From assembly GCA_023920165.1 (NCBI GenBank), contig CP089280.1, forward strand, positions 992,001 to 1,056,000: a DNA stretch of 64,000 bases. The letters run 5' to 3'. The DNA comes from Curvularia clavata. Its lineage: Eukaryota. The notes below the pieces were generated by a model, which saw only the letters and a list, made by a program, of their open reading frames with translations, did no database searches and was not told where the DNA came from. The translations under genes and the position numbers were made by a program. Below are positions 57,836-64,000 of this stretch, piece after piece (the stretch's first letter is position 1; the number at the start of each line of letters is the position of its first letter).

Positions 57836-60800
57836 CTAGAAGCCAAGCAACGCTACACGCCCAGAAAAACACCCTAGAAACACTGTATGTCTATGCACTG
57901 CTATGACGCAGTTCCGATACTCAGGAGGAAGCCATAGAGACCGCCGCGTTCGACACAATATCCATTCGCCATCTACTGTAGCATATAAGAGCTCCTGGGC
58001 TAGAGGAGCGGGCGCAATAGCGATAGGATCTAACGGTAGGGAAATATCTCCTTTATTAGTATGGAGAGTCTGACCATCTGGTAAGAAAGTGATGTGAAAG
58101 ATGTGTGAAGGTTGATCTTTTAGCACGGTGCGACTGTGGCCTGTTGCTGTTTCCCACACCCGCACTGTTAAGTCTTCAGATGCTGAGGCGACTAGCTGTC
58201 CGTCTGGCGAGAATACCACCGCGGTAACCTCTCGTGAATGGCCGTTCAGCACGCTACAGCAATGGCCTGTTGATGTCTCCCATATCCGCACTGTTCTATC
58301 TTCTGATCCTGAGGCGACTAGCTTCCCATCTGGCGAGAATACTACTGCATTAGCCCAGCCTGAATGGCCGTTTAGCACGCTACGACAGTGGCTTGTTGCT
58401 GTCTCCCATACCCGTACTGTGCTATCGCGGGATGCTGAGGCGACTAGCTGCCCATCTGGCGAGAACACCACCGCCCTAATATAGTGCGAGTGGCCGTCTA
58501 GTACGCTGCGACAGGCGCCCGTTGCTATCCTCCATAACCGCACTGTTAAGTCGTCAGATACTGAGGCGACTAGCTTCCCATCTGGCGAGAACACTACCAC
58601 GCTGACCCCTTGTGAATGGCCGTTCAGCACGCTACGACAGTGGCCTGTTGCTATCTCCCACACCCGCACTGTTAAGTCTTGAGATGCTGAGGCGACTAGC
58701 TTCCCATCTGGTGAGAATACTATAGTGCTAACCATATGTAAATGGCCCTTTAGTACGCTACGGCAGTGGCCCGTTGCTGTCTCCCATACTCGCACTGTGC
58801 TATCAGTAGATGCTGAGGCGGCTAGCTGCCCATCTGGCGAGAATGCTACCGCGCTGACTATATGTGAATGGCCCTCTAGTATACTACAGTAGTAGCCCAT
58901 CGCTGTCTCCCACACCCGCACTGTTAAGTCTTCAGATGCTGAGGCGACTAGCTGTCCGTCTGGCGAGAACACCACCGCGGTAACCTCTCGTGAATGGCCG
59001 TTCAGCACGCTATAGCAATGGCCTGTTGATGTCTCCCACACCCGCACTGTCCTGTCGTTAGATGCTGAGGCGACTCGTTGCCCGTCTGGCGAGAACACTA
59101 CCGCGTTAACCCAGCCTGAATGGCCATTCAACACGCTACGGCAGTGGCCCGTTGCTGTCTCCCACAATCGCACTGTCCTGTCGTTAGATGCGGAGGCGAC
59201 TAGCTTCCCGTCTGGCGAGAACACTGCCGCGCTGACCCCTTGTGAATGGCCGTCTAACACGCGACGGCAGTGGCCCGTTGCTGTCTCCCACAACCGCACT
59301 GTCTTATCATAGGATGCTGAGGCGACTAGCTTCCCATCTGGCGAGAACACTGCCGCGCTGACCCCTTGTGAATGGCCGTCTAGCACGTTACGGCAATAGC
59401 CTGTTGCTGTCTCCCACACCCGCACTGTGCTATCTAAGGATGCTAAGGTGACTAGTTGCCTATCTGGCGAGAACACTACCGCGTTAACCCAGCCTGAATG
59501 GCCATTCAACACGCTACGGCAGTGGCCCGTTGCTGTCTCCCACAATCGCACTGTCTTATCATAGGATGCTGAGGCGACTAGCTTCCCATCTGGCGAGAAC
59601 ACTGCCGCGCTGACCCCTTGTGAATGGCCGTCTAGCACGTTACGGCAATAGCCTGTTGCTGTCTCCCACAATCGCACTGTCCTATCGTAGGACGCAGAGG
59701 CGACCAGTTGCCCATTTGGTGAGAACACAACTGCTTCGATTGCATGTGAATGGCCCTCTAACACACTCCGGCATGCGTCCCACTCTGCATCTCTCCCCTG
59801 AAGCATCTTTACTGCCTGGGGCATTTGTCCTGTAAACCTCTTTCGCACAATGCTGGTCTCAGGTGAGAATAGAAGAGCAGACAAGTATGTTTGGAGTGGC
59901 GCTTCTGCAATTATAGGCACGAAACGCAGCACGAATCGGTTTGCATCATAGAGGAACTTAGCAACAACACTATTAGACGGCTAGATTCAACTCAGCACTA
60001 GACACGATGGTTATTTTATTGGGGAAGCTTTACCATTACCAAGGTTTGCAGCTTCGCAACTAATCGCACGCACAGACTCGTCTCATCGAGTAGGCTCATA
60101 GCCTCAAGCCAGTGAAGAAGGTGTTTCTCAAGGAAGCAGTGCGTGGCGTCTCCGTCCTTAATACTGCACCTACCGCGTTCTAGATGATGGACCCAGTAGC
60201 GGCACGCGTACTGCAGCTCAAGAGGTAGGCTGCGGTTAATTATCTCTTCATTGATCTCTCTTCGCAAAACTCCAGGATCTGAGAGATTACACATGTCTTG
60301 GTGAAGACCGCTCAGCGCCGACATTAGCTCCAGGCAACAAGACGCCAGCTTCTTGTGCGTGCCATGCTCCTCTACCCAGAAGTTGTCATCACCGCATCTC
60401 TTTCTATTGAGTAAAAAGTCGCGGAATGAAGGGTGATGCAAACGCACAAGGCAGCTTGGATCTTGTGGGATATCTACAATAGAGTGTAGCTCGTATAGCG
60501 TTCGATGCACATCCTCTGCAGAAACGTGGAGTAGCCGAGCTAGCGAAGAAGCAGAAAGCGGCGATTGTAGAAGCACAATCGCCCCAAGTGTCTCTTTAAT
60601 TAGCCTATACCATCTCTTCCTTTCCTGTTTCCTGTATCTATAAGCGGGGGTCTTGAGTACTGTAAGGTATATGCTGTCTAATCGCTGTTCGGGCAGAATT
60701 TCGAAGCGTTCATCTATGCCAGAGTCCTCACTAGATGAACTGTTGCTTGCCGAGCTGTTATCTGCAGAGGAGCTGTCCTTAAGAACAGCACGTAGTCGGT

Positions 60801-61826
60801 CAGCAGCGAACGGTCCGCCTTCTTGGATGAAGCGACAGGCAGTAGCAGCCCAGATGAACAGACCGCATGCACTCTGCACTAACCGTCTGATGGTCTCTAC
60901 ACCTGGCCAACCATCCGCCTGATTACATTCTTCTGCAATGATCCTAAGATAGTGCTCAAGAAAGAGTCCTATGTCGTGGTCAACGATCGACGGCGATATG
61001 TTGTGCAGCACAACGTCCTGGTGCTCTGCCTCAGGAATCTGACGGAGCCCGTGTCGGATTGGTACCTCTGGCCTGCTTGTCAGCAGCACCCGCAGCCGGA
61101 CCTTCGTTAGTGATCGAGCCTCAGCCAATAGCTGTACGATAATGCGGATGTTGCTGTCGTTGTCGCACTCGTCGAGCGCATCGACGACTACGATGTATGT
61201 TGCTTGCCCTGCTTCTAGCTCGTGCAGCTTCGACAGCGGGTGGAGAACGAGGTGGTGCCACTGGTCGCGTAGAGACTGGCTAGCAACGTCGTCGCGCTCT
61301 GCAACTGCGTCGCTAATAAGCTGCTTCAACGCTGGCATATTGCGTGTAAGCTGCGCTGCAAGGCTCGTCACGAACTTGCCTGCGTGTCCTACATCGCCGC
61401 CGCCGCGCGAGAAGAAGAAGCTGGCCGCCAGACGCTGCTTGTCGTAGTAGCTGCGCGCCACGGTCCGCGCGATCGTCGACTTGCCTGTGCCTGCCAGGCC
61501 GCTGAGCCAGAAGATGCACCGCTCGTCTTGCCCGTCCGCCCAGCTGTATATCTCTTGTAGCAGATCGACGCGCGTGTCAGCGAGACATGTAGGCTCGTGC
61601 TGCTTAGCGTACGAGTTGAAGGGCGCATCTTCGGCGCGCGGGAGACGGTCGAGTGTGTTCTCAAGTCCTGTTTGATGTGTCTGCTTAGCGTCCCGCATCT
61701 ACTGGACAGCTTGACGGCCCTAGGACGGTCCCGCGACGTACCAATATGGATAGAGCCGTTGATGTTGTTAGCTTGGACGCTCTTGTACGCGTTGCCGAAC
61801 GCCATGTTAGATGTTATAGAGGCCAT
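57836..61826 (-). CDS. NACHT-WD40 NLR-like protein (HET-E/NWD type) lacking an N-terminal effector domain. Exons about 61826-61742, 61667-60034, 59980-57836.
   Basis: CLADTRVDLL, Walker A WLSGLAGTGKST, ASFFF, Walker B VVVDALDEC, LTSRPE, HPSFRDFL and YACRYW, then 13 WD40 repeats. Both introns splice in frame. Confidence 0.93.
58124..59761 (-). repeat. 13 x 126-bp highly conserved WD40 tandem repeats
   Basis: The unit LxGHSxxVxAVVFSPDGxLVASASxDxTVRxWETATGHCRSV was counted 13 times in the translation. Confidence 0.95.
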
Positions 61827-62424: not shown

Positions 62425-63089
62425 TGCCCGCAGCGAATTGCGGTATTGCTGGCCACGCAAGAGTCGCCTTGCGAAGAGATGATATACAGGAAATAATTGA
62501 GATTAAAGGTCTCTATTCCGAGATTCTGCACGCTTCTTAGATGTGGCTGCGTTTGTTGTGGTGAAGAGTATGGCTGGCATGCCGGCACGCAGGGTTTTCC
62601 GCCACACGTGGAGGGATAGTAGTGCCGAATAGCTTCGCTTACAGTGTCTTACTGTAGAAACCCGTTAACTCAAATACTATAGTTAGTTGTTGATCCTTAC
62701 ACAACGTACTTTCACGTCCGTGAGACTTGTAATTACTAAAGCATAATTGCTTCAAAAGTATAAACGTTCATGCTCTCGCAACGCCATTGCATCATGCAAG
62801 CAGAAAATTTTGAGTGTGAGGATGTTGCAAGGTCTGGTTGGAGATCTTCGCAAGGATCGTGCTTAAGTAACGTGGCCTCATCCCGGATACGCTGCAAGGT
62901 GTTTAATTCGTGGTGTGTGCTCGGGCTACCAACAGATTGGCGCGATACAGTAGCGACTGAATCGCGAACCGAGGGGCCTGCGAGCCTGCCAGCGTACCTT
63001 GTTCAGCCTTACGCATCCAACTTTCGCAGACGCTCGCGAGCTGCACAAGGCAGACGCTGAATTTCTCAGCCGTGCTCTACCATACCACC

Positions 63090-64000
63090 ATGAGATGGAC
63101 CCCAACACCACCTCTTCGACTCGAGGCGCTGTGCTCCCGCACTAACTCGCCCTACCTCCGTTGTTTACTACCGAATCGCGATGGCTGGCAACGTAGGTTT
63201 CAACAGTCCTCAGCAGCCACCAGGCTCCGCACGACCCACGACTACCCCATTGGAGTAATATGCGCCCTCGCGGTGGAGAAGGCAGCCTTCGTGGCTATGC
63301 TGGACGAGGTCCATGAGTCACTGCCGACGCCCAAAGGCGACGACAACAGCTATACCTTTGGTAGAATCGGGGATCACAACATTGTCGCTGCATGTCTGCC
63401 TGCTGGCATGACTGGTAACAACTCGGCTGCGACAGTAGCGAAAGATATGTTGCGCAGTTTCCCGATCAAGATTGGGCTCATGGTTGGAATAGGCGGAGGG
63501 GCGTGGAGCAGGAAGGTGGACATTCGGCTCGGGGATGTGGTTGTTAGCCAGCCCGACGGTATGCATGGCGGCGTGGTGCAGTGGGACTTTGGCAAGATGG
63601 AGAGCGGGGGCTTCAAGCGAACGGGTTCACTGAATAAGCCTCCACGGCCGCTGCTAAATGCCGTGCAAGATATCAAGACAAAGCATATGACAGAAGGGGA
63701 CAGGCTAGCTGAGCACTTGTTGAAGATAGCACAAAGTAAGCCGAGGATGATGCAGGCATTCTCGCATCAAGGTACAGAACACGACTGCCTGTACGAGTCG
63801 ACCTATAATCACGCTGGAGGCGAGACATGCGATAGATTCGATAGTGGAAAGATAGTTAAGAGACAGCCTCGAACGACGACAGATCCGTGTATACACTATG
63901 GCAACATTGCATCGGGCAATGAGGTGATCAAAAACGGCCAGTTTTGAGACCATATAGCACAAGAACAAGGCGTAATATGCTTTGAGATGGAAGCAGCTGG
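63090..64000 (+). pseudogene. PNP_UDP (nucleoside phosphorylase) domain gene with an in-frame stop at 63945-63947. It runs off the window end and its start is uncertain.
   Basis: HDYPIGVICALAVE, YTFGRIGDHNIV, LMVGIGGG, DIRLGDVVVS, GSLNKPP and IHYGNIASGNEVIK. After the TGA the same frame continues DHIAQEQGVICFEMEAA. Confidence 0.8.

Follow-up and report, generated by a model that had tools for sequence, protein, structure and literature searches.

A short N-terminal motif can take the place of an effector domain in a fungal nucleotide-binding oligomerization domain-like receptor (NLR), as in the PNT1/HELLP/SBP system of Chaetomium globosum and Podospora anserina, and the NACHT-WD40 receptor of the NWD2/HET-S system of Podospora anserina also carries a short motif at its N-terminus. 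The repeat domain of PNT1 consists of TPR repeats. PNP_UDP proteins with a C-terminal motif, encoded next to a NACHT or NACHT-WD40 NLR, form a further set of described pairs, with PUASM, HRAM3, sigma or PP motifs (Wojciechowski et al. 2022, PMC9815663); the pairs listed in its supplement (file 6 part 1) have the motif around residues 306-397 of the PNP protein. In the same paper the PUASM pattern is FxGxGxQxxGxGxF, the PP motif is reported with enzymatic as well as pore-forming effectors, and NLR-side motifs outnumber effector-side ones in some genomes. The PP signature has been described as a pseudopalindrome of some 20 residues that has Q at its centre, flanking N and G, and a G-phi-Q-phi-G core that is common to PP and RHIM (PMC5485727, PMC7885112). 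Here we describe a locus of Curvularia clavata that can be set beside these systems: in a stretch of 64,000 nucleotides (contig CP089280.1, positions 992,001 to 1,056,000; hereafter the window), a whole NACHT-WD40 NLR gene with a short N-terminal motif (57836..61826, minus strand) lies head to head with a nucleoside-phosphorylase gene of the PNP_UDP type that runs out of the window at its last base (63181..64000, plus strand).

The NLR of this locus shares with PNT1/HELLP/SBP a short motif in place of the effector domain, which is, as in that system, homologous to PP-core N-termini, rich in N, Q, G and S and free of proline. It differs from that system in having the core S-V-Q-A-N instead of G-phi-Q-phi-G, and from PNT1 in that its repeat domain is WD40; moreover, no motif-bearing HeLo-like or lipase gene was found adjacent to it or within the window. 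NWD2/HET-S resembles it in joining a short N-terminal motif to a NACHT-WD40 NLR, for which the same mechanism may be proposed by analogy, but the motif family is a different one (no Pfam HET-s match) and no adjacent pore-forming partner was found. The position of a PNP_UDP gene beside a short-motif NACHT-WD40 NLR recalls the pairs of PMC9815663; here, however, the NLR lacks PUASM, the PNP gene is disabled, and the relatives of this PNP that were read are proteins of 320-335 amino acids that stop about 17 residues after the domain. An all-in-one PNP_UDP-NACHT-WD40 protein of Aulographum hederae (P0233) belongs to the same NACHT-WD40 family (51% identity) and has a PNP domain 62% identical to that of the window, where, in contrast, the two parts are separate genes on opposite strands and the NLR has a motif-bearing first exon of its own. 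We think it probable that the locus holds an intact NLR with a PP-derived tag and a partner elsewhere, and that the neighbour, a disabled, tail-less copy of a stand-alone PNP, is not its effector.

An intact NLR with a spliced, motif-encoding first exon

The minus strand of 57836-61826 contains two long open frames, one of 560 amino acids (NPHP3_N/NACHT) and one of 714 amino acids (WD40), together with a short first exon that lies upstream in another frame. Spliced from three exons, the gene stays open over 1287 amino acids and has a single terminal stop. Exon 1 (61742..61826, minus strand) starts with the ATG at 61826, reads MASITSNMAFGNAYKSVQANNINGSIHI(G) in 28 codons and one base, and then meets a GTACGT donor; homologues and profile alignment with hhalign identify its product as a PP-derived motif of the amyloid-signalling type. 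Intron 1 (61668..61741; 74 nt, GTACGT...CAG) joins it to ...G|LENTLDRLPRAEDAPFNSY..., at the head of exon 2 (60034..61667), which encodes the NACHT lead-in, the NACHT/NPHP3_N NTPase and a linker to the repeats, and which has Pfam matches to NPHP3_N (E 2.4e-31), NACHT (E 1e-7) and AAA_16 (E 5.6e-7). The frame remains open across intron 2 (59981..60033; 53 nt, GTAAAG...TAG) into exon 3 (57836..59980), which provides the WD40 repeat sensor domain and the stop codon. Pfam WD40 matches this exon in 13 stretches (E 2.4e-152), and at the DNA level a 126-nt unit recurs in 12.8 tandem copies with 80% matches. A NACHT-type NTPase followed by WD40 repeats is the architecture of HET-E/NWD-type fungal NLRs, and among the 120 closest NLRs listed (981-2800 amino acids) the best homologues are Bipolaris maydis NLRs at 72% identity.

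Both introns are visible in contigs of a sequencing run, X7, whose RNA label is only a guess and which we treat as RNA because of its behaviour, namely its spliced joints and the lack of any cover over 61840-62273. A joint at 61666/61741 skips 74 nt at a depth of 449 and equals predicted intron 1, while a joint at 59980/60034 skips 53 nt and equals intron 2; both end CT..AC on the plus strand, that is, GT..AG on the strand of the NLR. The first junction is also matched by a Bipolaris maydis homologue, P0122, which reads MASTTSSIAFGNAYKSVQANNINGSVHIGLENTLDRLP, at ...NGSVHIG|LENTLDRLP. Gaps in cover at 57500-58150 (X7) and over most of the stretch (X21, a root metatranscriptome) were not used as evidence. 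An earlier note on this DNA, made from its sequence, had described an NLR that lacks an effector domain and has about 28 residues ahead of the NACHT lead-in, and had named a different first exon in RNA as an outcome that would count against its reading. The gene model agrees with that description: the 28-residue first exon is spliced to the NACHT lead-in as the RNA-like contigs indicate, and neither the 28-residue nor the 38-residue N-terminal peptide has an effector domain or any other Pfam match at E<=10. Intact and transcribed, the NLR probably belongs to the amyloid-signalling class of fungal NLRs, as an ordinary member that looks functional.

An alternative in-frame ATG is present at 61845-61847, seven codons upstream of 61826 (MLFYRDAM...), and some homologue models, such as P0126, start at the equivalent codon; the ATG at 61826 is the likelier start, since X7 depth is seen in the 61623-61839 bin but is absent from the bin that follows. 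In another run, X1, four contigs (depth 34.8 of 149.6) are one base short at 61409, in a GC-rich GGCGGCGGC stretch of the NACHT exon, and contigs also break at 61408 and 61498; the one-base difference may be caused by paralogues or heterogeneity.

The N-terminal peptide is conserved and related to PP motifs

Comparison of the N-termini of the 120 NLR homologues revealed the same motif in five of them (P0122, P0125, P0126, P0137 and P0207, from Bipolaris and Paraphaeosphaeria) and a related form, ...FGD(A/V/N)NS(G/A)FQAGI(V/I)NG(S/T)V..., in three more (P0166, P0235 and P0127); in many of the remaining homologues the N-terminus is a HET, PNP_UDP or other domain, or a short motif of a different kind. 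In an alignment of six motif sequences, 15 of 33 columns are invariant. The motif of the window sets in within the first 10 residues of the protein, and the first 29 residues include 5 N, 1 Q, 3 G and 4 S, a single charged residue (K), and neither acidic residues nor proline. This composition fits the signalling-motif type, and amyloid formation is a prediction by analogy. The peptide appears to be a conserved amyloid-signalling-type motif of Pleosporales NLRs.

Its relation to known classes is less simple. The window motif reads Y-K-S-V-Q-A-N-N-I-N-G, with both PP core glycines replaced, while P0166 and P0235 have the core G-F-Q-A-G (as N-S-G-F-Q-A-G). When the group with the window motif was aligned by hhalign to the N-termini with a G-phi-Q-phi-G core, the two matched over 24 columns at 50% identity (probability 95.4%, E 1.7e-8). 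Because the peptide is homologous to PP-type N-termini and yet has a S-V-Q-A-N core without the defining glycines, we class it on this alignment as PP-derived, not as a canonical PP motif. The motif had previously been called PP/RHIM-like, which holds for its homology and not for its core, and had been said to differ from PUASM, which is confirmed by the absence of FxGxGxQxxGxGxF from the 29-residue N-terminus. The 28- and 38-residue peptides match no Pfam family at E<=10, models of the sigma and HET-s motifs included where Pfam has them.

A transcribed PNP_UDP-type neighbour with two lesions

The divergent neighbour, of which the 5' three quarters (63181..64000, plus strand) lie in the window, was delimited by tblastn and by contigs. 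Its ATG at 63181 is 1354 nt from that of the NLR, on the opposite strand, where a PNP_UDP gene had been placed about 1.3 kb away. Over 235 residues the encoded fragment shares 84% identity with P0001 and with P0002, proteins of 335 amino acids each. The fragments in the window have no Pfam match at E<=10. P0001 passes the PNP_UDP_1 model (PF01048), scoring 37.5 bits over residues 28-320 where the cut-off is 25.1; in P0233 the model matches residues 237-314, towards the C-terminal end of the PNP domain, a region of which much is missing from the window.

The gene has no intact frame. In tblastn searches with P0001 and P0002, the first 22 residues (MAGNVGFNSPQQPPGSARPTTT) lie in frame +2 and the sequence from ...THDYPIGVICAL onward in frame +1, the change falling at about 63236-63239. 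Further on, the 328-amino-acid open frame of the plus strand ends at a TGA at 63945-63947, where the conserved F-R-D of the homologues reads F-stop-D, and beyond which the same frame reads DHIAQEQGVICFEMEAAG to the window end. The main frame could alternatively begin at an in-frame ATG at 63090, but the TGA would still remove the last ~76 residues, including the FEMEAAG segment that is kept in all homologues read. That the gene was broken had been implied by the earlier note, and the lesions are not private to this assembly. The TGA is covered by colinear contigs of X7, of X21 and of X3, a DNA run under a differently labelled organism, with one synonymous difference nearby (63932 A>G), and the frameshift is covered by contigs of X3 and X7 with zero indels. 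The locus is nonetheless transcribed, as seen in a jointless X7 contig that extends from 62710 to beyond 64000.

A search for homologues of this PNP covered proteins of 129-412 amino acids, of which the best 120 were listed. Eight relatives (P0001, P0002, P0003, P0006, P0009, P0012, P0013 and P0021), all of 320-335 amino acids, end in ...AKELLGVVKKQGVDELEPASK or a close variant, a tail of about 17 charged residues after the domain that is not amyloid-like. An HKN..W anchor could be placed in 112 of the 120 homologues; the distance from it to the end of the protein is at most 45 residues in 96, 46-60 in 8 and longer in 8. Relatives in metagenome DNA follow the same pattern, with the frame stopping right after a ...GV(D/E)xLxPxS(K/E) tail in 7 of 8. 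A quick maximum-likelihood tree of 65 rows places the window's PNP in a clade of 31 rows, with a Shimodaira-Hasegawa-like approximate likelihood ratio test (SH-aLRT) support of 97, in which all other rows are stand-alone proteins of 300-367 amino acids; tailed forms and the fused P0233 fall outside it. None of the 120 homologues matches the NLR motif profile (best E 0.14). The neighbour is most likely, as its relatives suggest, a transcribed, disabled copy from a subfamily of stand-alone PNP_UDP proteins of about 335 amino acids that end without an amyloid motif.

No motif-bearing effector found in the window or in protein libraries

The six-sequence motif profile was run against a library of 1.84 billion representatives, clustered at 50% identity, and gave 13 matches at E<=0.001, none of them an effector protein. 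In eleven cases the match is the N-terminal first exon of an NLR, or a frame that extends from it into the intron; P0252 represents this exon with the reading begun further upstream, and P0253, a repeat protein, is unrelated. When proteins of 158-506 amino acids were searched through a word index with the first 40 residues of P0241, three candidates emerged, all of which are NLR first exons. P0241 (Pyrenophora tritici-repentis) and P0254 (Bipolaris zeicola) are unusually close to one another, being 100% identical in these 40 residues and similar well beyond them.

Within the window, the 1997 six-frame frames of at least 20 amino acids contain no second copy of the motif, and only the exon of the NLR itself was recovered (E 2.4e-19). 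Two short resemblances were set aside. A 10-residue match at 45200-45301 (E 0.016 over the 1997 frames) belongs to a 34-amino-acid frame among other short frames and was judged to be chance, and a G-I-Q-V-G at 30598-30732, in a 44-amino-acid frame with no surrounding gene, is at chance level, roughly one to two G-phi-Q-phi-G-type matches being expected per ~100,000 residues. Pfam matches to the HeLo, HeLo-like, SesA/SesB and patatin families were absent from the other large frames of the window that were scanned. A C-terminal, effector-side copy of the motif was therefore not found in the window, in the 120 PNP homologues or in either protein library, by searches that would miss a diverged motif or one hidden behind a cluster representative.

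Gene order in relatives

Conserved adjacency of PNP and NLR genes, which had been proposed as a check on the pair, was not seen in the relatives examined. Phaeosphaeriaceae sp. PMI808 has an 84% identical PNP orthologue on a contig of 232,244 nt, and the listed NLR homologues of this species are on contigs of other lengths, 577,106, 285,369, 129,672 and 174,612 nt. The genera whose NLR orthologues have the same motif, Bipolaris, Pyrenophora and Paraphaeosphaeria, contribute no named protein to the best 120 PNP matches. A metagenome scan returned no copy of this locus, only relatives at 43-76% identity; of the eight loci, the three longest (10-14 kb) show no NACHT near the PNP relative, and one, L008, is a fused PNP-NACHT gene. 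On a metagenome contig of 14.3 kb (L004), three PNP_UDP paralogues, two of them full-length, occur within 14 kb with no NACHT nearby. An exact scan with the last 41 bases of the window found no match in the genome contig and viral contig collections.

The supplements of PMC9815663 were also searched (files 1, 9 and 10 excepted, and file 2 in part). The Bipolaris oryzae orthologue EUC40168.1 is present in the neighbour list of supplement file 5 and absent from the motif-pair tables 6 and 7 and from the other covered files; of six accessions looked up in the same covered files, EUC40168 is the only one present, and in file 5 alone, while the covered part of file 2 contains none of the accessions or taxon names looked up in it.

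In the fused P0233, residues ~300-400 consist of a tail of the stand-alone type (KELLGVIKKQEVDKLEPAA), partly duplicated, that links the PNP domain to the NACHT lead-in. A tail serving as linker suggests that stand-alone PNP genes and this NLR family have been joined by fusion or separated by fission.

Weighing the explanations

Our preferred explanation, an intact NLR with a PP-derived tag and an unlinked partner, builds on gene structures, splicing, domains, conservation of the motif, its PP homology, the PNP lesions and the lack of a matching motif in PNP relatives, all of which are observed, and extends them to amyloid formation, templating and a partner elsewhere by analogy. Since NWD2/HET-S and PNT1/HELLP offer that analogy, the NLR may be proposed to work as follows: a ligand would bind the WD40 repeats, the NACHT domains would oligomerise and so gather the N-terminal peptides, these would fold into a cross-beta template, and the template would convert a matching motif on an effector encoded elsewhere. 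Several points weigh against it. The window motif lacks both PP core glycines, its ability to form amyloid is a prediction, and no search recovered an effector partner, which leaves templating without an identified target. Clustering at 50% identity can hide a tailed member behind a tail-less representative; the last ~58 codons of the PNP gene, and whatever follows them, fall past base 64000, outside the window; and fused forms near the window's copy could not have appeared in a search of proteins of 129-412 amino acids. Four of the 112 anchored homologues (P0031, P0036, P0048 and P0102) have tails that look amyloid-like, by eye only, and tailed forms therefore seem to exist in the broad PNP family. 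The metagenome relatives used for synteny are 43-76% identical. The adjacency itself may not be chance, because PNP is a typical NLR effector domain and in P0233 a PNP domain with 62% identity is joined to a NACHT-WD40 from this very family.

The pair proposed in the earlier note, a sensor and an enzyme effector in which the PNP C-terminus carries the PP-like motif of the NLR and the enzyme is, or was until its gene became disabled, activated through amyloid templating, now seems highly improbable. The two genes are divergent neighbours 1354 nt apart, both occur in RNA-like contigs, PNP_UDP/NLR pairs of this kind are published (PMC9815663), and the four tails that look amyloid-like would suit it; but the lesions recur in every run that covers them, the window's PNP nests in a clade whose members, where read, have no tail, none of the 120 homologues fits the motif profile, no motif-bearing effector was found in two very large protein libraries, adjacency is not seen in the relatives checked, and EUC40168.1 is in file 5 of that paper's supplement and not in its motif-pair tables 6 and 7. 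Of the three outcomes set beforehand as counting against the pair (no shared motif in the PNP protein, no conserved adjacency, a different NLR first exon), the first two were found, as far as they could be tested. We regard the pair as strongly disfavoured rather than disproved, because the C-terminus of the PNP lies past base 64000. The main rival is instead the alternative already raised in the earlier note, a head-to-head pair of NLRs, in which a second, disabled NLR of the PNP_UDP-NACHT-repeat type would continue beyond base 64000 and have the PNP_UDP domain as the effector domain at its N-terminus. P0233 has just this architecture, with a PNP domain 62% and a NACHT 51% identical to those of the window and a stand-alone-type tail acting as linker, L008 is another fused form, and fused forms of more than 412 amino acids were not candidates in the PNP search. 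Contigs extend past the window by 1709 nt (X7, colinear), 1857 nt (X3, DNA) and 517 nt (X1), the first two being longer than a gene for 335 amino acids needs, and those of X7 and X3 end within ~150 nt of each other, as contigs also do at the WD40 repeats of the NLR in the window. Contigs can, however, continue into a neighbouring gene or end for many reasons, which makes these lengths a weak hint, and the sampled fused forms are 47-62% identical to the window's PNP against 76-84% for stand-alone forms, with P0233 outside the 31-row clade. We consider a second NLR unlikely, although it is the strongest of the alternatives. The genes could also be tied functionally with no shared motif, either co-regulated from a divergent promoter or with the PNP as a decayed former effector, a fission product of an all-in-one PNP_UDP-NACHT-WD40 gene. 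The fusion in P0233 of this PNP subfamily's domain to the same NACHT-WD40 family is consistent with such a tie, as is the cover of both genes by the same RNA-like run, with ~870 nt uncovered between them. Against it stand the disabled PNP frame, the lack of conserved adjacency in the checkable relatives, and the Bipolaris NLR orthologues, which keep the motif although no close Bipolaris PNP is among the best 120 matches, and we hold it to be very unlikely.

If the motif-linked pair were real, it would extend a class described in 2022 by another PNP_UDP/NLR amyloid pair, a useful and unsurprising addition. What remains under the explanation that we prefer, an intact NLR with its partner elsewhere, is a well-documented "orphan" NLR-side motif with an RNA-supported first exon and conservation across genera. 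The conserved loss of both core glycines from a PP-derived motif with no detectable partner is the feature that merits a specialist's attention, and it lends itself naturally to testing to what extent the G-phi-Q-phi-G core is required in an amyloid signalling motif and whether motifs on the NLR side can function with no linked partner. It is conceivable, if quite unlikely, that the glycine-less PP-derived N-terminus (consensus ...FGNAYSSVQANNINGSVHIG) marks a separate motif subfamily of Pleosporales NLRs that has no effector-side copy. Signalling by such NLRs would rely on the cross-seeding of effectors that carry a canonical PP motif, or would involve no templated partner at all, and the disabled PNP_UDP neighbour could in that case show a two-gene NLR/effector unit after its break-up.

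The intergenic region and other features of the window

Neither an Rfam match nor an internal repeat was found in the divergent intergenic region (61827..63180, 1354 nt, no strand). Cover by X7 is lacking over 61840-62273, and the uncovered gap between NLR and PNP amounts to ~870 nt. At ~62546-62623, depth peaks and contig breaks with loose ends are found in X1, X3 and X7, with an X3 depth of 455 against a background of ~117. The stretch at 62547-62621 looks like a short dispersed repeat of ~60-130 nt, of which the window holds no second copy.

Just downstream of the NLR, on the minus strand, 56094-56789 holds a frame with a BTB/POZ domain (E 3e-7). The stretch 49629-52893 (minus strand) is taken up by two long frames, 524 and 439 amino acids in length, with no Pfam match at E<=0.01, and three consecutive open frames lie at 47070-48773 (plus strand), the first with weak P-loop-type matches to Zeta_toxin (E 0.0037) and FtsK_SpoIIIE (E 0.0084); together these three may constitute another NTPase gene with introns. 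Further away, at 15764-19120 (minus strand), a frame of 1118 amino acids combines isochorismatase and 2OG-Fe(II) oxygenase domains.

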